Below, piece after piece: positions 7,306 through 31,589 of a DNA stretch of 41,925 bases. The stretch comes from an uncultured Bacilli bacterium (GTDB lineage: Bacteria; Bacillota_I; Bacilli_A; RF39; UBA660), in assembly GCA_944359025.1 (NCBI GenBank), contig CALVSM010000002.1, forward strand, positions 1 to 41,925, in the 5' to 3' direction. Position numbers and translations under genes: made by a program. The first letter of the stretch is position 1, and each line of letters begins with the position of its first letter. Below the pieces are notes generated by a model that worked only from the letters and a program-made list of their open reading frames with translations, ran no database searches and had not been told where the DNA came from.

Positions 7306-7320
7306 ATTGTGGATAAGCTA

Positions 7321-7348
7321 CACCTTGCCGCATTATCGGCAAGGTGTG
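7321..7348. other. Perfect 11-bp GC-rich hairpin in the 3' UTR of the large pilin-like gene
   Basis: ACACCTTGCCG-CATTAT-CGGCAAGGTGT. No U-tract follows on either strand. An upstream CAAGGT (minus strand) could pair alternatively with ACCTTG. Confidence 0.6.
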
Positions 7349-7393: not shown

Positions 7394-9425
7394 TTATATT
7401 TCGTATGGACTCGACCAAGTACCATTACCTCCGGTAATGGTGACATTAGAGTTGACAACTATAACTGCACGAAGGCCGTACGCGTCGCTGACACTGTCGC
7501 TGACGCCGACGCCGGCGAAGCTGACGTACCAAGCGTAAGAACTAGAAGTTCCCGGTGTCATTGTCCAATAATCATTCGCATTACCAAAGCTACTTGCAGT
7601 TGTATATCCTTTTGTTAGGATACTACTACTTTGTCCTGATAACATCTCTCCTATTCTTATTAACCCTACTGTTGCATTGATACTCCTTGTTGGACTATTT
7701 TCTTCCAATGATATCGTATAATTACCACCAGAAGTAAATTCATTTTGATGCCATGTATAATTTGTTACTAATTTATCTCTATTTTCAGTATCACTACTTG
7801 CTACTAACCATTCTAATACATCACTATTTAATTTTTGACCTATTCCCGTTGTTATTGAAAATGTATTATTACTTCCATATTCCATTTCATAAACACTACC
7901 GTTTTCTTCATAATAGCCATCTAGTATTAATTTGGTATTGCCATTACTATCTTTATCGACTACCCGATATTTCTTTCCAGCATATAATACATACTCCCCA
8001 CTTGTTGCTTTTTCGTTTAATTTGCCTGTTACTTCTATACTCTTATCTTCGTTTAAAATATATGGGCCAGCACTACTACTCCAAGTTGCTCCTAGAGTAC
8101 CATTACCTCCGGTAATGGTGACATTAGAGTTGACATTTATAACTGCACGAAGGCCGCCCGCGGCGTCGACACTGCCGGAGTTGCGGCCGGTGATGTTGAC
8201 GAGCCAAGCGCGAGAACCATCATATGGCGTTAATGTCCAAAATACTTGCTGATTAACTAAATAAGAACTATCAGCTCCAGCTAAATTATTTTCATCTAAT
8301 GATATTAAGCCTACTTTGGCTTTTTCCGTCGATAAATTATTACTACAATTTGTCCTTGCACTTGAAACATCTGTCACAGTCTCACTACACCATGTTTGCT
8401 CTACAATAATATCATTTCCTTTTAATCTTGAATAAAAATAATTATTTAACCAATCTTTAGCATGACTTCCATCATAATTTAAAGCGGTATCTTCTGCTCC
8501 CCATGGTATAGCCGTGACATTTTCTTCGATTATTAATCTCACACTTCCATCAGCATTAATTCCCATAATACGCCATAAGAAACCTGAATACCATATATAA
8601 TTATTATATACTTTAACTTGAAAATATTTTTCAGATGTCGTTCCAAATGCAACTTCAAAAGCAGTATCTACTCCATAACTTTCTAAAAGTCCAGCATCCA
8701 TTCCCCCATCCGTAAATGCCCAATTTTCAAATTCTTCTGCTTTAAATTCACCATTTGTTTTAAAAAAACGAGCATCGATTTCTTCTCTTGAAGTAAAACC
8801 AGATAATAACATCAAACTATAAAAATTTTCTTTAGGGTCAATACCACCTTTTAAATAACAACCTCCCATATAACTATAATTGTTACTTCCTGGGTTCACA
8901 CAGCCATTACCATCAGTTTCTAAAAAAGGGAAATTAGATAACACTACATCTTTAATTGGTCCAGTATGTATTATAGCTACTTCATCATCACTTGCCTCAC
9001 ATACTTCATCATCCATCACAAAACTTCCATCGGCACACAATTTAAAAATATGGCCGTTACTTTCTACTTCTAATTCCGTTAATTTACCATCTTCATAAGT
9101 TACTTTATTAACTGTAGCATTGCCTAAATTAACCATATCATTTACTTCTTCTACCGTTACTCCATCCGCACATATATCAGGTGTACCATTTAACTCTTGT
9201 TCCATTTTTGATGTCGCACAATAGTTATTAATACCACTATAAATCATCCTTGCTTCCGAACGACCTGCTGATATACGCGCATCACTAATTACATTTAAGA
9301 TAATTGGTGTCGCAATTAAAGCTACTATTGCTAGTATAATTATTACTGCTAATAATTTAATTAATGTAAAATTATTATTTAATAATTTCCCCCCCCCCCC
9401 GAATTTGCGATTTGCAATTTTTCAT
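7394..9425 (-). CDS. Large type IV pilin-like protein with two DUF1566/C-type-lectin-like modules carrying DGR-style variable regions; frame-shifted (phase OFF) at a G12 tract as sequenced
   Basis: The track ORF 7394..9247 is open upstream to 9421 but has no start codon there. An ATG at 9425 with RBS GGAAAGGAAG and its own promoter lies in the +1 frame and stops at 9375..9377. Removing one G from the tract at 9389..9400 yields MKNCKSQIRGGGKLLNNNFTLIKLLAVIIILAIVALIATPIILNVISDAR..., a class III (pilin) signal paralogous to the pilin at 12018..12428. Confidence 0.75.
7418..7456 (-). repeat. 39-nt post-VR block, copy A (100% identical to 8096..8134), with a 9-bp perfect hairpin
   Basis: The plus strand agtaccattacctccggtaatggtgacattagagttgac is identical in both copies. 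ACCATTACC / GGTAATGGT pair around a 3-nt loop (7421..7441). Confidence 0.9.
7457..7537 (-). other. DGR-type variable region A (C-terminal module), about 60-67% G+C
   Basis: The coding strand reads TAC GCT TGG TAC GTC AGC TTC GCC GGC GTC GGC GTC AGC GAC AGT GTC AGC GAC GCG TAC GGC CTT CGT GCA GTT ATA GTT. It differs from copy B only at codon positions 1-2. Confidence 0.7.
8096..8134 (-). repeat. 39-nt post-VR block, copy B, with the same 9-bp hairpin (8099..8119)
   Basis: It is identical to 7418..7456, although the surrounding protein modules are strongly diverged. Confidence 0.9.
8135..8212 (-). other. DGR-type variable region B (internal module)
   Basis: The coding strand reads CGC GCT TGG CTC GTC AAC ATC ACC GGC CGC AAC TCC GGC AGT GTC GAC GCC GCG GGC GGC CTT CGT GCA GTT ATA AAT. 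Codon usage is NNC inside an NNT/NNA gene. Confidence 0.7.
9389..9400 (-). repeat. Homopolymeric G12 (C12 on the plus strand) tract within codons 9-13 of the large pilin-like gene
   Basis: Counted directly: cc at 9389..9390 plus ten c at 9391..9400. It is the only long G/C homopolymer seen in this AT-rich window. It sits between the ATG (9425) and the body of the ORF, which are 178 nt apart (3n+1). Confidence 0.95.
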
Positions 9426-9462: not shown

Positions 9463-9491
9463 ATTTTATCTTAAAATAAGTTAATAGTCAA
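9463..9491 (-). promoter_or_regulatory. Sigma-A-type promoter of the large pilin-like gene (TTGACT-N17-TAAAAT)
   Basis: On the minus strand the -35 TTGACT is at 9486..9491, followed by a 17-nt spacer and the -10 TAAAAT at 9463..9468. The architecture matches the small pilin promoter. Confidence 0.5.
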
Positions 9492-12017: not shown

Positions 12018-12428
12018 TTAGTTAGAAGCTACTCCTTTAGATAAACTAAATGAGTTACCACTTAAAGTAGCTGTGTATCCATTACTTTCAACAACAAGTG
12101 CAGAAACTCCACTTTCGCCATAAGTTACAGAAACAATTTTAGCTTTACCTAAAGTTACCATTTGGCCAACTTCAGCTGCAGTTACTTCATAACCATTTTT
12201 AGCAGCATTTAAACAAATACTATCTTGAGTACTATTTAATTGATCTTTCATGTCAGCAGTAGCGCAGTAATTATTGATACCACTTAAAATCATACTAGCT
12301 TCAGATTCAGCAGCACTTTTTCTTGCATCGTCAATTACGTTTAAAATAATTGGTGTTGCGATTAATGCTACGATAGCTAAAATGATAATTACAGCTAACA
12401 ATTCGATTAATGTAAAACCTTTTTTCAT
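12018..12428 (-). CDS. Type IV pilin / ComGC-like pseudopilin with a canonical prepilin signal
   Basis: MKKG|FTLIELLAVIIILAIVALIATPIIL carries the N-methylation motif with Gly-1 and Glu+5. It is 136 aa with a GGTGGTGA RBS. Confidence 0.85.
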   Translation of the reverse strand: MKKGFTLIELLAVIIILAIVALIATPIILNVIDDARKSAAESEASMILSGINNYCATADMKDQLNSTQDSICLNAAKNGYEVTAAEVGQMVTLGKAKIVSVTYGESGVSALVVESNGYTATLSGNSFSLSKGVASN

Positions 12429-12464
12429 TTAATCTCACCACCTTACTTTTCTATTTCTATAACC

Positions 12465-16003: not shown

Positions 16004-16058
16004 TAATTCAAACAACATTTAAACAGTTAATTTATTTAAATTATTGATAAAGTTTTTA
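16004..16058. repeat. 55-bp direct repeat, copy 1 (duplicate of the recO 3' end plus 15 nt of downstream flank)
   Basis: taattcaaacaacatttaaacagttaatttatttaaattattgataaagttttta is identical to 16655..16709. Confidence 0.9.
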
Positions 16059-16062
16059 ACAA

Positions 16063-16575
16063 TTATTTATTATTTACTTTCCAATAACCGCTTTCTTGAT
16101 AATAAATTTTCAATGTCTTAAATTCTAAATCTTGTTTAGGAGACTTTATTTTTCTTAACGAATTCCTCGTTCTTTTAGAAAATAAATTAAGAATAGTTTC
16201 ACCGTTCATGCTTTCAACTGAAGAACCGACTCTAATAAAACAACTGTCTGGAGTCATACCCATACCTCTTAAATAATATGGTCTCTCATTACCTTTTGCA
16301 ACAATAATTTGTATATAATTTTTATTGTTTTTTTTATTTACAATAACATCAAATAAACCCAAAGTTGAAGGCATAATATTATTCTTTAATCTATCTTTTA
16401 TAGTTCTTTGTAATAAATCTATATTTTCTAAACTATCTTGAATATTTCCATTGTCATCTACCCCAATAAAAATATTCCCTCCATCAGTGTTTAAAAAAGC
16501 AATTACTTCTTTTTCTAGACTATCAGTAATTTTTGCTTTAAATTCGTTTCTTTTATCTTCCAATAATTCTATCAA
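16063..16575 (-). CDS. AlbA_2 (Schlafen-like) domain protein, apparently C-terminally truncated
   Basis: NEFKAKITDSLEKEVIAFLNTDGGNIFIGVDDNGNI is the typical AlbA_2 N-terminal motif. Full-length relatives are about 400-500 aa with HATPase/HTH parts, but this one ends 5 nt from repeat copy 1. It has a TTG start after GGTGAT. Confidence 0.6.
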   Translation of the reverse strand: MIELLEDKRNEFKAKITDSLEKEVIAFLNTDGGNIFIGVDDNGNIQDSLENIDLLQRTIKDRLKNNIMPSTLGLFDVIVNKKNNKNYIQIIVAKGNERPYYLRGMGMTPDSCFIRVGSSVESMNGETILNLFSKRTRNSLRKIKSPKQDLEFKTLKIYYQESGYWKVNNK

Positions 16576-16654: not shown

Positions 16655-16709
16655 TAATTCAAACAACATTTAAACAGTTAATTTATTTAAATTATTGATA
16701 AAGTTTTTA
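16655..16709. repeat. 55-bp direct repeat, copy 2 (the authentic recO 3' end)
   Basis: It is identical to 16004..16058 and contains the last 13 codons plus the stop of recO. Confidence 0.9.
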
Positions 16710-22355: not shown

Positions 22356-22444
22356 GACAATCACCTAATACAGTTTATGCGATTAATTTTAAATGTGTAC
22401 ATATAAACTATTTTCATGATATAATATTTATGAGGTGTACTTTA

Positions 22445-23716
22445 ATGGAAAAGATAAAAGAATTTTTTTCTAAATTTAAAATTAATCGGTTAAATAAAAA
22501 ATTAATTCGCGGTGTTTTGATAATTGTTTTTGTGATTTTAGTTTCATATTTTATTATATCTAGTATTATAACAGGTAATCATAATCGTACTTGTAATGAG
22601 TTACGCGAAGAAATTTTAGCCGCAACTGATATATATATGTCAGAAAACAATTTATTACCAACTTTAAATGGTACTAGCAGCACAATGGCATTATCTGATT
22701 TATATAATAGTATTATTTTTAAAGACTATGCTGTAACAGGAACCGTTACTTATACCAAATATAATGATGAATATGTTAAAACGATAGAATTAGATAATGC
22801 TGATTTTTGTACTACTAAAGAATTTAATGAAGAATCTAGTGAATATGATAGTTCAAAAAATGCTAAAGTAGAAGTTACTTTTAACTATGTTACTGTTGAT
22901 TCTTATAATTCTAAATGGACTGATTGGTACCCTAGTGAATATATCAGTACTGAAGAAACAAATGGGGTCTTACTCCCATTAGATGAAGATCGCTTACCTG
23001 ATATTCCTAATGGCGCTATTATTACCGAATATGTAAGAGAAACTGATACCTATTATAGTTATCGTGATAAAAGATGGCGTTGGTATAAAAACAATGTTAA
23101 ATATAGTGATTTTAGTTCGGAAAAACCTAAAGGTTATACCACTAAAGACACATCCGTCACTTTATCTAGTGAAGCCACTCCTTGGAGTTTAGATTATCCT
23201 GAAGAAAAAGATTATCGTCATATTAAAAGAACAACTGGATATCGTTGGTATTATTTAAACGAAAACGAAGAAAAAATTTACTGGAATAATGGCGAATATA
23301 GTCCTGAATCACCGGGTGAGGAATACCAAAGAGATACCGAATTAAAAGCAACCATGTATTCTTATACTGACGATATGTGGCGTTGGTATAACGGCGATAC
23401 TAAAAGAATTTATAGTAGTTACAGTTCAACTAAACCTAAAAATTATAATTATAAAGATAGTGAAACTTTAACTTATTCTAATTGGTCTAAATATTACGAA
23501 GAAAGTCATCTTGATAGTTCTAATAAAAGTTATCGCGAAGAAAGAACCGATATTTATTCTAGATACTTAATTAAATATGATATTCAAAGTTACCCAATTT
23601 TAGAAAATTATGTGTCTTTAGGCGAATTAGAAGTTGCTGTTGGAAAATCATATGAACAAATTAATGAAGATGATTCTCTACAAGTATTAGTAAATTTTAA
23701 ATTCTATTACGAATAA
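22445..23716 (+). CDS. Membrane-anchored extracytoplasmic protein with aromatic Y-x-Y-R / W-R-W-Y repeats
   Basis: It has an N-terminal TM (GVLIIVFVILVSYFIISSII). Repeats include YSYRDKRWRWY, YRWYYLN and YSYTDDMWRWY. The ATG at 22445 follows GAGGTG. No family was recognised. Confidence 0.5.
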   Translation: MEKIKEFFSKFKINRLNKKLIRGVLIIVFVILVSYFIISSIITGNHNRTCNELREEILAATDIYMSENNLLPTLNGTSSTMALSDLYNSIIFKDYAVTGTVTYTKYNDEYVKTIELDNADFCTTKEFNEESSEYDSSKNAKVEVTFNYVTVDSYNSKWTDWYPSEYISTEETNGVLLPLDEDRLPDIPNGAIITEYVRETDTYYSYRDKRWRWYKNNVKYSDFSSEKPKGYTTKDTSVTLSSEATPWSLDYPEEKDYRHIKRTTGYRWYYLNENEEKIYWNNGEYSPESPGEEYQRDTELKATMYSYTDDMWRWYNGDTKRIYSSYSSTKPKNYNYKDSETLTYSNWSKYYEESHLDSSNKSYREERTDIYSRYLIKYDIQSYPILENYVSLGELEVAVGKSYEQINEDDSLQVLVNFKFYYE

Positions 23717-23723
23717 AATCGAG

Positions 23724-24221
23724 TCAATTTAACTCGATTTTTATTTGTTCTACTCTATCAACATAATTATCATTATTATAATTATTAATTATAGTATTAA
23801 TTATTTCAACATCTTTATCGACACTATAACCGACAATAATTTCATCACCAATTACTAAATAAGGAACTGCATAATAAGTTTGATTTAATTCTTCTCCCAC
23901 TTTCATCATCAATTCTTTATTTTCCTCATTAAACCATACTTCATATTCAATCAAATTATAATACTTACCATATTCTTCTTCTATATCACTAAAATATTTC
24001 TTTAAATTCTCACAAACATGACAACCATCCCCCCAAAACAAATAAATATTTATAGGCTCGCGATTTTCATCGATTGGTTCTTCAATAACTGGTTCTTCTA
24101 TTGTTTGATTATCATCTACTTGGTCATTATCAACATTTGGTTTTTCTGTTTCTGGTTCTATCTTGCCACATCCAACTAATAAAAAACAGCATATTATCAT
24201 TAATAACTTTAATATTTTCAT
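23724..24221 (-). CDS. Thioredoxin-fold lipoprotein (CxxC)
   Basis: It has a lipobox LLVGCG, an acidic linker, then WGDGCHVCENLK, which is a CxxC active-site context. Confidence 0.6.
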   Translation of the reverse strand: MKILKLLMIICCFLLVGCGKIEPETEKPNVDNDQVDDNQTIEEPVIEEPIDENREPINIYLFWGDGCHVCENLKKYFSDIEEEYGKYYNLIEYEVWFNEENKELMMKVGEELNQTYYAVPYLVIGDEIIVGYSVDKDVEIINTIINNYNNDNYVDRVEQIKIELN

Positions 24222-27727: not shown

Positions 27728-29554
27728 TTATTTTTTAAATTTTTGATTTTTAAATATTATATAAATCAAAAGAATAAACAAAAGAACTATAATGGTTATA
27801 TCTAAAATACTATGACCATTAATCTTTAAAATATAATCACTTAACTTATTGTCTAAATTTGAATCTTCTAGACATTTGCTTTCATATTGTTTAATTATAT
27901 TATCTTTTTCTTTTAATTTATTATTCATCGCTTCATTTAATAATTTCAAATCTTCATTTAATTCTGCGATTTTATTTTGATAAAATTCATTAGCATTTGT
28001 TAACTCGGTAATTTCCCTATATTTTAAAGCTATATCATTGTTTAAAACAATCGCTTCTTTCTTTAAATTATTTATTTCTTCTTCTAAACTAATTATTTCC
28101 TTTTGTAATTCTTGATTATCTTTTTTTAAAGTAGTTAATTCATCGATTTTTGATATAAGCTCCGCTTGTAACCTATTAACTTTATCAATTAAATCTTGCA
28201 ATTCTTGTTCTTGTTTTTTTAAAAGTTCTTCTTTTTGTTTTAATGTTTCTTTTAAACAACTATTTTCTTTTTGACAATTATCTAACTTTTCGTTTAAATC
28301 ATTTATTTTTGCTTCATACTCTTGTTCTTTATCGTGTAAATAATCTTCTAAAGATATAATTTCTTCTTTTAAATCAGCTATTTCTTGTTCTAAATCAAAA
28401 ATAGTATTTTCTAAAATGTTTAATTTTACATCTTTAGTTACTACGATATCATTTAAAATAAATTTAACTTCATAGTTACCGTTTTTTTGCCAATCAATAT
28501 TGTTTTGAATATTAACTTTATCAGTACTAAAAACAATAAAATCATTTAAGTCAAAATTCTTATCCGTAATATCATGAATGTTTATTTCCAATTTATCACG
28601 AAGACGATAGCGGTAAAAATTCTTCTTACTTGCTTCATCTTTATAAATATAATCATAAATAGCTGTATTAGAATATTCATTATAATATTCTTTTTCTTCT
28701 TCGATAACTTTACACCATTTTTCCTGATAACGGTATTGTTTAGTTACCTTAACATCAACTATATTAGAATGATTTTCTTCTTCATAAGAAATTTCTTTTG
28801 TTGTCCATTCACTAATATCGATATTAAAATCGGTAATTTTTTTAACTTCCTTTTTTGCATTTGACCAATGATAATCAGCAAAACGTAATAAATATCCTTG
28901 AGCGACAAAAATATCTTTTTTATCTTTTGAATAACCAATTGTATATTTTTTATCGCTAGGACCTAAATCAAAAATATAAAAAATGGTTTCAATTTGATTT
29001 AAAGGATACTCTTTACCTAAATCGATAATTAAAGAGCCACCATTATCGATATATGACATATTTTCTTCATAAATACCATTATGAATATAATCGTCAAATC
29101 CTGCTAAACAGCCATCACAAGTATAATCATAGTCAATTTCCTTACCATTTACCTTGACCATCAATTCAGTTATTCTAAAAGCGCCATAGCTTCCTTGCAA
29201 ATTGTATAAGTGAATATATCTAATTGCTTCGGCTTTAGTATATTCATACTTATTTCTTTCTTCATAAACATAACCAACATTATCTACTTTTTCTTCTTGC
29301 CAATTAGAATAATTAGTTAAATAACATTCATCACTAAATTTATCTTCTTGATTATATAATTTATAGTCGCCGATTACTTCATTTTTTTTATACCAAAGAT
29401 ACCTTTCTTCCACTGCAACATCAACAATATCTGATGCGACAACCTCTTCTTCTTGATAACTAGAAAAATCAGAATAATTAGAATAATATACTTCGCTAGC
29501 TTCTACTTTAGAACCAATAACAAGTAAAAATATTAACCATAAAATCTTTTTCAT
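27728..29554 (-). CDS. Secreted, C-terminally TM-anchored protein: aromatic-repeat N-terminal region, discoidin-like segment and a long coiled coil
   Basis: It has a signal peptide (MKKILWLIFLLVIGSKVEA). It carries YRYR/WxxW-type motifs. A heptad-rich region of about 200 aa (EQEIADLKEEIISLE...LQAELISKIDELTTLKK) precedes a terminal TM (ITIIVLLFILLIYIIF). A GGAGGTGA RBS is present. Confidence 0.6.
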   Translation of the reverse strand: MKKILWLIFLLVIGSKVEASEVYYSNYSDFSSYQEEEVVASDIVDVAVEERYLWYKKNEVIGDYKLYNQEDKFSDECYLTNYSNWQEEKVDNVGYVYEERNKYEYTKAEAIRYIHLYNLQGSYGAFRITELMVKVNGKEIDYDYTCDGCLAGFDDYIHNGIYEENMSYIDNGGSLIIDLGKEYPLNQIETIFYIFDLGPSDKKYTIGYSKDKKDIFVAQGYLLRFADYHWSNAKKEVKKITDFNIDISEWTTKEISYEEENHSNIVDVKVTKQYRYQEKWCKVIEEEKEYYNEYSNTAIYDYIYKDEASKKNFYRYRLRDKLEINIHDITDKNFDLNDFIVFSTDKVNIQNNIDWQKNGNYEVKFILNDIVVTKDVKLNILENTIFDLEQEIADLKEEIISLEDYLHDKEQEYEAKINDLNEKLDNCQKENSCLKETLKQKEELLKKQEQELQDLIDKVNRLQAELISKIDELTTLKKDNQELQKEIISLEEEINNLKKEAIVLNNDIALKYREITELTNANEFYQNKIAELNEDLKLLNEAMNNKLKEKDNIIKQYESKCLEDSNLDNKLSDYILKINGHSILDITIIVLLFILLIYIIFKNQKFKK

Positions 29555-30372: not shown

Positions 30373-30530
30373 ACTTCATAGAAAACTTAGCTTTCTCCAT
30401 AGACCAACCTCGGATGGTCGCCACCCTATTTTTATTTCATTCAAAACTAATTGAATTGCAGTTCGTCCATATACTGTTTTAACCCTTCATTCATAATATT
30501 AATACTAGCGTTTAAATCTCGTTCATTTTT
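30373..30530 (-). ncRNA. Putative omega (re) RNA scaffold of the TnpB element
   Basis: In characterised IS605-family elements, the region overlapping the tnpB 3' end and about 75-100 nt downstream encodes the guide RNA. Here it contains an unusually GC-rich structured stretch, GGGTGGCGACCATCCGAGGTTGGTCTATGGAG (minus strand). The boundaries and guide cannot be defined by eye. Confidence 0.3.
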
Positions 30531-31589
30531 ATTTTGACATTTTGGACATTCCCACTCTCTTATCTTTAGATTTTTTAATTCTTTATTTTTATAGCCACAA
30601 TGACTACATATTTGACTACTTGGATAACTGGTATCTATTTGGTAGAATTTCTTATTCTTCCACTTACTTTTATACGATATACATCTTATTAGTTCTTGCC
30701 AACTGGCATCATATATTTGTTTAGAAAGATGGGAGTTTTTTACCATTTGATTTATCTTTAATTTTTCAGCCACAATTATGTCATTTTCTTCGGTTATTTC
30801 TTTACTTATTTGATGAATGAGATATTTTCTTGCATTTCTTAACTTTTGATAGACTCTAGCTAGTTTTAATCTAATCTTTTCGCGATTTTTGCTTCCTTTT
30901 TGGCTTCGTGATAACCATTTTTGTAACCCTTTGATTTTCTTTTCATATTTTTGAATATATTTTTGATTATCATATACTTTACCATCGGATGTTATAACTA
31001 GATTTTTTATTCCTAAATCTAGCCCGATTATTGTTTTAGGTGTTATTATTGGTTGATTGATATATTCTTCGACACAAACACTAACATAATATTTATTTGC
31101 TTCTTTATAAACTGTCGCATTAATAATTTTGCCATTTATTTGTTTTAAGTTGCGATATCCTTTAATAGCTACTTCTTTTAATTTGGGTAATTTGATTATT
31201 TTTTTATTCAAATCTAGTTCGATACTGTTATATGTTTTTTCTTTATAATTACTTGTTATGTTATTCGTCCGATAACTTTGTCGGCTTCTTGTTTTACTTT
31301 TAAATTTTGGTAAACCTTTCTTTTCTTTAAAATATTTTTGATAAGCGTTATCCAAATTAAAAATACTACATCGAAGTAAACAACTATCTACTTCTTTTAA
31401 CCATAGATATTCATTTATTAATTCTGGTAATTTTTTTATATAATTATAAGCATTAATTTTTTCTTCTTTGCTGATGTCTAAAAAATAGTTATAAATAAAT
31501 CTTGAACAGCCAATACTTTTTTCAATTAAGATTGCCTGTTCCTTAGTTGGATATAATCTAAACACATAACCTTTTAATATTTTTTCCAT
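30447..31589 (-). CDS. tnpB: IS605/IS1341-family TnpB (OrfB) RNA-guided endonuclease
   Basis: The N-terminus KGYVFRLYPTKEQ is typical of OrfB. Candidate RuvC residues lie in IIGLDLGIKN, IVAEKL and RDLNASINI. The zinc ribbon is CSHCGY...CPKCQ. It is 380 aa. Confidence 0.9.
   Translation of the reverse strand: MEKILKGYVFRLYPTKEQAILIEKSIGCSRFIYNYFLDISKEEKINAYNYIKKLPELINEYLWLKEVDSCLLRCSIFNLDNAYQKYFKEKKGLPKFKSKTRSRQSYRTNNITSNYKEKTYNSIELDLNKKIIKLPKLKEVAIKGYRNLKQINGKIINATVYKEANKYYVSVCVEEYINQPIITPKTIIGLDLGIKNLVITSDGKVYDNQKYIQKYEKKIKGLQKWLSRSQKGSKNREKIRLKLARVYQKLRNARKYLIHQISKEITEENDIIVAEKLKINQMVKNSHLSKQIYDASWQELIRCISYKSKWKNKKFYQIDTSYPSSQICSHCGYKNKELKNLKIREWECPKCQNKNERDLNASINIMNEGLKQYMDELQFN

Follow-up and report, generated by a model that had tools for sequence, protein, structure and literature searches.

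The question raised by this locus is why a single gene in very AT-rich DNA should carry two short GC-rich cassettes that differ from one another only at the first two positions of their codons. The gene (7394..9425, minus strand) lies in a 41,925-nt stretch from an uncultured Bacilli bacterium (contig CALVSM010000002.1), which is referred to here as the window and has 26.2% G+C overall, and it encodes a type IV pilin-like protein. We conclude that both cassettes are very probably variable regions (VRs) of a diversity-generating retroelement (DGR), rewritten in trans by a chromosomal DGR elsewhere in the genome. This reading is carried by the codon-position pattern of the cassettes, by the re-randomisation of both VRs in another strain, by the complete DGRs of relatives, remote paralogs included, and by a reverse transcriptase (RT) in the sample that yielded the ortholog of the gene. 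Besides DGRs, no natural system is known that targets proteins for hypermutation in prokaryotes, and DGRs are at their densest in the gut.

Two GC-rich cassettes in one gene

The gene, its two cassettes and the variable regions within them are as follows.

7394..9425, minus strand: target gene, type IV pilin-like, with two DUF6273 modules, each ending in a VR
7394..9247, minus strand: mechanical open reading frame (ORF), beginning at Met 9247, 617 aa
7457..7537, minus strand: cassette A, 60.5% G+C, within the ORF 7394..9247
8135..8212, minus strand: cassette B, 64.1% G+C, within the ORF 7394..9247
8143..8215, minus strand: VR1, 73 nt, internal, at the end of DUF6273 module 1, reading TCT CGC GCT TGG ... 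GGCCTTCGTGCAG
7465..7540, minus strand: VR2, 76 nt, C-terminal, at the end of module 2, reading TCT TAC GCT TGG ... GGCCTTCGTGCAG

The limits of VR1 and VR2 were set by homology to the template repeats (TRs) of relatives. The cassettes had been located in an initial annotation of the sequence, and their position and strand, together with the 60-67% G+C estimated for them, agree with the computed values; the 25-30% given for the other parts of the gene was too low, the 570 codons outside the cassettes having 33% G+C. The bias towards NNC codons described at the same time is equally plain, with 33 of the 47 cassette codons ending in C, against 40/570 in the remaining gene.

Counted on the alignment of that annotation, which contains one codon gap, cassettes A and B are separated by 21 substitutions, which are split between position 1 (ten) and position 2 (11) and leave position 3 untouched, as the hand count of about 21 had implied. 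An 18-nt sequence, GGCCTTCGTGCAGTTATA, occurs in exactly two copies in the window (chance expectation 0), and past the next codon a 39-nt block is the same in both copies (7418..7456 and 8096..8134), so that both stretches of identical DNA reported earlier were found to be exact. The codon between them, AAT or GTT, had been taken as one of the diversified codons. This was rejected, as it is fixed per module across homologs, encoding N behind every first cassette and V or I behind every second; on this comparison the codon is module-specific, undiversified and outside the variable region, and the true variable sequence therefore holds 19, not 21, differences.

Variation among strains and across the family

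The window is syntenic with a second locus, L001, at 97.8% nucleotide identity across 18.2 kb, and L001 is, by its sequence, the same-species ortholog. Across 37 aligned VR codons the two loci differ by 36 substitutions, distributed 18/16/2 over the three codon positions, whereas the other 577 codons hold 114, distributed 22/27/65. The corresponding densities are ~32% in the VRs and 6.6% in the remaining gene. Both VRs are re-randomised in L001, and the remaining gene shows ordinary third-position drift. The same is seen at the protein level in homologs P0002-P0004, where both cassettes are wholly different despite 85-89% overall identity.

A wider measure of this constraint is given by K, E, Q, M and W, which were chosen since NNC and NNT codons cannot encode them. 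Among the 3377 residues that lie between the AW and GLR anchors of 120 homologs, these five account for 1.45%, compared with a background of 17.3% in the same proteins. Variation is confined to positions 1-2 of NNC/NNT codons and hypervariability to the VRs, which is a defining property of DGR targets.

Templates and reverse transcriptases of related genomes

A scan for TRs and RTs covered 42 related loci from species-representative genomes, and found AAC-rich cassette copies ~80-100 nt downstream of homologous targets, accompanied by RT ORFs. The order in L010 is target (with two VRs), GC hairpin, TR, conserved spacer, terminator, a MutS_I-like ORF of 136 aa, bAvd, and an RVT_1 RT of 332 aa with the motifs GNxxSQ...YMDD. 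L049, L050, L003, L004, L006 and L052 are arranged as L010 is, the TR of L052 being divergent. The bAvd proteins of these DGRs are of the PF22296 and NF033474 type, and the best phage matches of the RT are themselves DGR RTs, from phage nd12 (38% identity), crAss-like phages and Bordetella phages. The metagenome-assembled genomes (MAGs) of these relatives are labelled uncultured Bacilli, Tenericutes, or Candidatus Faecisoma/Pelethosoma, and each holds 2-5 paralogs of the target.

The TRs of relatives carry AAC or AAT precisely at the variable codons. Summed over the in-register comparisons, 175 TR-VR mismatches lie at TR adenines and 32 elsewhere, and there are TR-VR pairs with adenine shares of 9/9, 11/11 and 14/15, so that the adenine-specific mutagenesis proposed from the cassettes alone is upheld. 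Homology between TR and VR stops at GGCCTTCGTGCAG, beyond which the VR continues with TTATA... and the TR with GATTCC.... The VRs of paralogs elsewhere in the same MAG, on separate contigs, fit these templates equally well, L013, L017 and L039 fitting the L004 TR, and L012 and L031 the L003 TR. Judged from these two MAGs, trans targeting of remote two-VR paralogs appears common in the clade.

At some loci, decayed or orphan DGR parts adjoin paralogs of the target. L002 (12104-12180) has a full TR and spacer with 3-7 non-A mismatches, no adjacent RT, and tilS as the next gene. In L045 (11866-11910) the TR is internally deleted between two AAC GTC AAC AAC repeats and there is no RT. In L048 (560-1000) a transposase-like fragment stands in place of the target and TR.

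Lengths vary as well as letters. The segment between the AW and GLR anchors has 17 residues in 162/197 VRs and ranges from 12 to 26; it measures 16 and 17 residues in the window and 18 and 15 in L001. VR2 of both L010 and L049 exceeds the neighbouring TR by one NNC codon, which lies inside an AAC run, VR1 of L049 has a four-codon duplication, and P0024 has a duplicated NDGV block. Codon-sized indels beside AAC repeats are a known non-canonical outcome of DGRs and have been ascribed to template slippage (PMC5758913), and the length changes in this family would likewise have arisen by slippage on AAC runs.

A separate observation concerns the promoter of the MutS-like/avd/RT operon in relatives, upstream of which a (GT)n tract, with n = 5, 7, 9 or 11, spans the spacer between TTGACA and GATAAT.

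(GT)n tracts in relatives: L010:11972-11985, L049:7119-7136, L050:2447-2464, L051:7113-7130, L003:12223, L004:12222, L006:2788, L052:4228-4249, L048:985-994

Changes in the length of this tract would therefore alter promoter spacing, and DGR expression might be phase-variable.

The DNA that follows the variable regions

Each VR ends in a sequence resembling the initiation of mutagenic homing (IMH) site of DGRs and is followed by the same set of elements.

8143..8155, minus strand: IMH-like, GC-rich end of VR1, GGCCTTCGTGCAG, just upstream of the post-VR1 region
8096..8142, minus strand: candidate post-VR1 recognition region, comprising TTATA, the module-specific codon and the 39-nt block
8099..8119, minus strand: post-VR1 inverted repeat, 9 bp, ACCATTACC-GGA-GGTAATGGT, -7.4 kcal/mol, z=-2.4
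7465..7477, minus strand: IMH-like end of VR2
7418..7464, minus strand: candidate post-VR2 recognition region, built as after VR1 (39-nt block, inverted repeat)
7421..7441, minus strand: post-VR2 inverted repeat, -8.2 kcal/mol, z=-2.0
7320..7347, minus strand: GC-rich hairpin in the 3' untranslated region (UTR), 11 bp, CACACCTTGCC-loop-GGCAAGGTGT, -13.9 kcal/mol, z=-6.5

The sequence GGCCTTCGTGCAG closes both VRs, and the TRs of relatives possess it and then diverge, which is the boundary that separates an IMH from its template counterpart, IMH*. The 39-nt block starts eight bases past this GC-rich end. Across loci, the IMH-like end and the inverted repeat are kept after every VR. The stem of the repeat is near-invariant and consists of C-ending codons atypical of the genome, with GTC, ACC and AAC fixed at 0.94-1.0, and the loop varies freely (GGA, AAA, AGA, TCC, GGT, CAA), altering the encoded residue. 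Pairing of the stem is retained in 93% of cells over 13 variants, two pairs showing compensatory change, compared with 21-60% in slid controls; in L052 it is kept by double changes, from ATT/AAT to TTC/GAA.

An inverted repeat downstream of the IMH is a feature of about a third of DGRs and is present here at both VRs. In the DGRs of Bordetella and Legionella, the IMH and inverted repeat are needed for efficient homing (PMC5758913), and by analogy the repeat in this family is a likely recognition element. The identical 3' DNA of the initial annotation thus stands as an observation, and is now read as two elements, the IMH-like end and the 9-bp inverted repeat behind it.

The hairpin in the 3' UTR is distinct from these repeats. 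None of 200 shuffles folded as well (0/200), and the hairpin is kept, with 11-12 bp (L010:11667-11696), in all paralogous loci, where it is the last homologous element before divergence; where a TR is present, the hairpin lies ~35 nt upstream of it. A role as the terminator of the gene was considered and rejected, as it has no T-run. Just downstream, a further hairpin with a T-run can be made out by eye, which the terminator scan did not list.

In the mechanism that we propose, a chromosomal DGR elsewhere in the genome, made up of TR, MutS-like protein, bAvd and RT, would transcribe its AAC-rich TR; the TR RNA would be reverse-transcribed with random misincorporation opposite adenines, and the mutagenised complementary DNA would replace VR1 or VR2 in trans. 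The IMH-like end GGCCTTCGTGCAG would direct this replacement together with the 39-nt block, which is invariant and contains the 9-bp inverted repeat. On this mechanism the DNA after the VRs would be identical in two diverged modules because it is the recognition sequence for targeting, and the high GC content and NNC codons of the cassettes would reflect the template from which they are copied, and not the AT-biased mutation of the host.

The target protein and its reading frame

The modules had been described as DUF1566 domains, an assignment that was rejected in favour of DUF6273, which Pfam matched instead. Module 1 matches this family with E=1.6e-7, over the curated cut-off, and its VR falls at the end of the profile (171/172); module 2 gives a weak match, to the C-terminal part of the profile only (E=0.033). 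DUF6273 is a documented target domain of DGRs, reported to be C-type-lectin-like (CLec-like) and to bear its VR on a hairpin at the surface (PMC10743442). The C-type-lectin-like fold predicted for the modules of the target rests on the Pfam assignment together with that literature (PMC10743442). AlphaFold models were unusable, both for the full protein (53 sequences; predicted local distance difference test, pLDDT, 53, with the modules <50) and for module 1 (92 sequences, pLDDT 48). A profile search of the PDB gave no sequence match to solved CLec structures and matched the pilin N-terminus only, the family profile hitting solved type IV pilins (8pfb PilE1, 5.8e-9). Orthologs have 661-686 aa and start with a type IV pilin leader and N-terminal methylation motif (PF07963). 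A search of protein collections returned 615 relatives, mostly from ENA gut metagenome assemblies, and an exact look-up found no identical record of the window protein.

The 5' end of the target gene aligns with L001 from the ATG at 9425, and two further features lie in this region.

9389..9400, minus strand: G12 homopolymer in the part coding for the leader peptide, which sets ATG 9425 in a different frame from the body of the gene
9463..9491, minus strand: promoter-like site, TTGACT, 17 nt, TAAAAT, a consensus match only

Tract lengths of 8, 11 or 14 at 9389..9400 would restore the frame, and L001 has G8 at the same site (L001:10026-10033) and is in frame. Runs of G7-G14 occur at the equivalent position of many paralogs (L007:9844-9855, L013:66-79, L026:219-231, L039:9847-9859 among them), those with G12-G14 being out of frame; among complete copies 5/6 are out of frame, and only the G8 copy is in frame. 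Seven of the nine runs of G>=7 in 672 kb of ~27% GC DNA fall at this leader site. The G12 is probably a slipped-strand phase-variation tract, or else a homopolymer assembly error, the tract lengths being taken from metagenome assemblies, which are error-prone for long G runs. The pilin motif of the window is coded at ~9340-9370 on the minus strand, out of frame with ATG 9425.

Two other observations were made at this end of the gene. Several G/C-to-A/T changes are clustered in ~30 nt beside the G tract, with flanks ~98% identical. Two genes upstream, beyond yfhO, a 136-aa ORF (12018-12428, minus strand) also has a type IV pilin methylation motif, and its DNA matches the beginning of the target gene at 70% identity over the first ~220 nt (9175-9396 / 12221-12442).

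The search for a template, and the case against an active system

Several observations weigh against the view that a DGR rewrites these cassettes in trans. The first group concerns the missing machinery. No TR was found in the window by a repeat search, a search with the 18-mer allowing 3 mismatches, and a scan for AAC/AAT density, all of which gave the two VRs only. Nor was an RT found in the 41.9-kb window by a motif scan and Pfam searches of 40 ORFs, which returned housekeeping, sporulation and nicotinamide adenine dinucleotide (NAD) genes and one TnpB. The nearest TR, of the L010/L049 type, is equal in length to VR2 of the window and differs from it by 22 mismatches, 17 of them at adenines and five elsewhere, and it is out of register with VR1. 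A TR with the scaffold of the window was not among the loci of paralogs and RT relatives that were looked up (the L010-type TR, L045, L047, L048 and L052), and exact-pattern searches for the window-type VR end or for the predicted TR gave 0 matches in viral_contigs, genome_contigs and metagenome_contigs, the first pattern used on genome_contigs being too strict in demanding a T before GTC.

The second group concerns the cassettes and the gene. In five very close strains (P0005-P0009) VR1 is identical and VR2 shows single-residue differences, and therefore turnover is not fast on such a timescale. The length differences among VRs require non-canonical events. The gene is out of frame at G12, and its pilin motif reads NNNFTLIKLL where the ortholog has NNAFTLIELL, a change to Lys of the Glu5 that is nearly invariant in type IV pilins, so that this copy may be silent or decaying.

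The sample of the ortholog bears on the missing machinery. An RT, P0121, 97% identical to the L010 RT, lies on L047 (BRZ_CS NODE_2935, coverage 5.55) in ENA sample ERZ24773278, and L001 comes from the same sample (NODE_2313, coverage 5.60). The L047 contig begins inside avd, and the TR is not visible on it. A further paralog from this sample, L053, fits a template of the AAT/GCC type. The species of the window thus probably carries a DGR, its RT having been seen in the sample of L001 and not in the genome of the window itself; an active DGR with a matching TR would be expected in that genome too.

The variable regions of the window and L001 have a common scaffold, in which the variable codons are all C-ending, the second GGC is shared and AGT precedes GTC, and which has five non-adenine differences from the sole TR type recovered in the sub-clade (L010, L049, L050, L051). 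As the scaffold is common but nearly all variable codons differ, the two loci must have been rewritten independently from a template of that scaffold, and therefore at least two TR variants would serve, or would recently have served, the species. The original proposal of DGR variable regions written from an AAC-rich template is accordingly sustained by the codon pattern, the orthologs and the TRs and RTs of relatives; that a single template served both cassettes is unproven.

Alternative explanations

The alternative that survives best is that the cassettes are fossils, written once by a DGR at a locus which is no longer diversified, the DGR or TR having been lost or silenced or the gene having become a pseudogene. 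The G12 frame break and the Glu5 to Lys change speak for it, as do the lack of a TR or RT in the window, the decayed DGR parts of L045, L002 and L048, and the poor fit of the recovered TR type to the scaffold. We nevertheless regard it as unlikely. The 617-codon body of the gene has no stop codon, and the VRs are still ~68% GC, with 33/47 C-ending codons and no decay towards A/T-ending ones, in a genome of 26% GC. Behind both VRs the IMH-like end and the inverted repeat are undamaged, and the same in each copy. The window and L001, which share a scaffold, differ at practically all of its variable codons, and this implies rewriting after the two split. The frameshift itself is usual in the family (5/6 complete paralogs), a frequency more in keeping with reversible switching or assembly error than with decay.

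Far less probable is recombination of cassettes, that is, gene conversion among the 2-5 pilin-like paralogs with the identical flanks as anchors, in the manner of Neisseria pilE/pilS. Each genome does hold several paralogs with identical VR flanks, the protein is pilin-like, and the length-variable segments and the NDGV duplication of P0024 could stem from unequal exchange. Yet the changes occur per codon, at positions 1-2 with the third base fixed, and not in blocks; among ~45 VRs examined, no two share blocks, near-identical strains excepted. Residues outside the coding range of NNC/NNT are almost absent, and in relatives the variable positions are the adenines of a TR that adjoins bAvd and RT.

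A further alternative is that ordinary diversifying selection has acted on GC-rich DNA gained by horizontal transfer, or that the pattern arose by chance. It might be suggested by the positive selection common in surface adhesins and by GC-rich islands that could be foreign DNA, but is effectively refuted by third-position changes of 0/21 between the paralogous cassettes and 2/36 between orthologs in a gene where third positions otherwise dominate, by the denser change of the VRs than of the remaining gene (~32% vs 6.6%) in strains 97.8% identical, and by the TRs that exist in relatives.

Genomic surroundings of the target

The target gene lies in housekeeping surroundings, with yfhO upstream and lepA downstream, and the other genes of the window include S2, ValRS, RecO, Era, and sporulation and NAD genes. 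A perfect 55-nt direct repeat (16004-16058 and 16655-16709) encloses a 170-aa ORF with a Schlafen/AlbA_2 domain (16063..16575); this stretch sits between an HD-domain gene and recO, and differs by ~200 nt between the window and L001. The sole mobile-element gene seen in the window is an ORF of the IS605 OrfB/TnpB type (30447-31589, minus strand; HTH_OrfB_IS605, OrfB_IS605, Cas12f1-like TNB). Three ORFs have no Pfam match at E<=1e-4, at 22430-23716 (plus strand, 428 aa), 27728-29554 (minus strand, 608 aa) and 23724-24221 (minus strand, 165 aa).

Relation to known diversification systems

The closest precedent for targeting at a distance is the DGR of Treponema denticola, which is chromosomal and non-phage, and in which one RT/TR serves TvpA and about seven remote targets (PMC5758913). 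The present clade resembles it in its 2-5 scattered paralogs per MAG and in remote VRs that match the TR of the MAG at an adenine-specific level. Its targets differ from TvpA, a lipoprotein with a CLec domain of the FGE-sulfatase type and one VR, in having a type IV pilin leader, DUF6273 modules and two VRs.

The LdtA DGR of Legionella pneumophila has MSL and Avd, a surface target, and a GC-rich inverted repeat downstream of the IMH (PMC5758913). The related cassettes described here share MutS_I-like, bAvd and RT genes and an inverted repeat past each VR. In contrast to LdtA, a lipoprotein exported by twin-arginine translocation (TAT) and encoded on a genomic island with an adjacent TR, the window target is remote from TR and RT, and unlike the GC-rich Legionella repeat, its 9-bp stem is of mixed AT/GC composition and lies 23 nt past the end of the VR. 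Bacteroides DGRs diversify tip adhesins of type V pili, some with an Msl accessory protein (bioRxiv 10.1101/2024.11.15.621889). In both cases an adhesive pilus component of gut bacteria is diversified, but the proteins of this family have the N-terminal methylation motif of type IV pilins, unlike the Mfa/Fim-like type V pilins, and belong to a low-GC member of the Bacilli/Mycoplasmatota.

Phage systems offer further comparisons. The same Pfam domain is found in the DUF6273 targets ('tentaclins') of phages nd4 and nd12 and of Faecalibacterium prophages, and the best phage match of the clade RT is that of nd12, at 38%. These targets serve phages as receptor-binding proteins, and the DGR is carried by the phage itself, whereas the present target is cellular, fused to a pilin and placed at a housekeeping site (yfhO-target-lepA). 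The Mtd/Brt system of Bordetella phage BPP-1 shows adenine-to-any-base (A-to-N) mutagenesis, AAC codons, a GC-rich IMH at the 3' end of the VR, an inverted repeat after it, and Avd with RT (PMC5758913). All of these, with the transfer from TR to VR, are shared; BPP-1 differs in being a phage tail-fibre system with a single adjacent target, a single VR, no MSL and no length variation.

Homopolymer tracts also control contingency genes such as Neisseria opa and pilC and Haemophilus lic. The present family is like these in its poly-G tract in the 5' coding part of a multi-copy surface family, with length and frame differing per copy, and unlike them in that the length differences come from metagenome assemblies and switching was not observed. 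Taken together with the (GT)n tracts, these features allow a tentative and rather doubtful picture of two-layer stochastic surface variation, in which poly-G slippage would pick the paralogs to be expressed and a single DGR with more than one TR variant, orphan TRs included, would rewrite the two lectin-like tips of each protein in trans; the MutS-like/avd/RT operon would perhaps be (GT)n-gated, and AAC slippage would add length diversity.

What the target family adds

All the main traits of the system have been described before in DGRs, namely A-to-N mutagenesis, AAC codons, the IMH with its inverted repeat, Avd and MSL, remote targets, multiple VRs per gene, AAC indels and DUF6273 as a CLec-like target (PMC5758913, PMC6642488, PMC11661182, PMC10743442). 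One survey counts a 'G-type pilin' domain among the rare hosts of VRs (PMC11661182), and beyond this mention no description of the pilin-like, two-module family was found in the literature. The mechanism is thus well known, and what is new is the target family of type IV pilin-like proteins in a very AT-rich uncultured gut bacterium, with two diversified, predicted lectin-like modules per protein and 2-5 paralogs per genome that appear to be served in trans. A remote DGR target of this kind is recognisable from raw sequence, as GC-rich islands of NNC codons followed by identical recognition DNA, and such recognition helps to annotate metagenome bins whose fragmentation has left RT and TR on contigs other than that of the target. 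If the observations on the G tract and the (GT)n tracts hold, phase variation and retroelement mutagenesis would be joined in one adhesin family.

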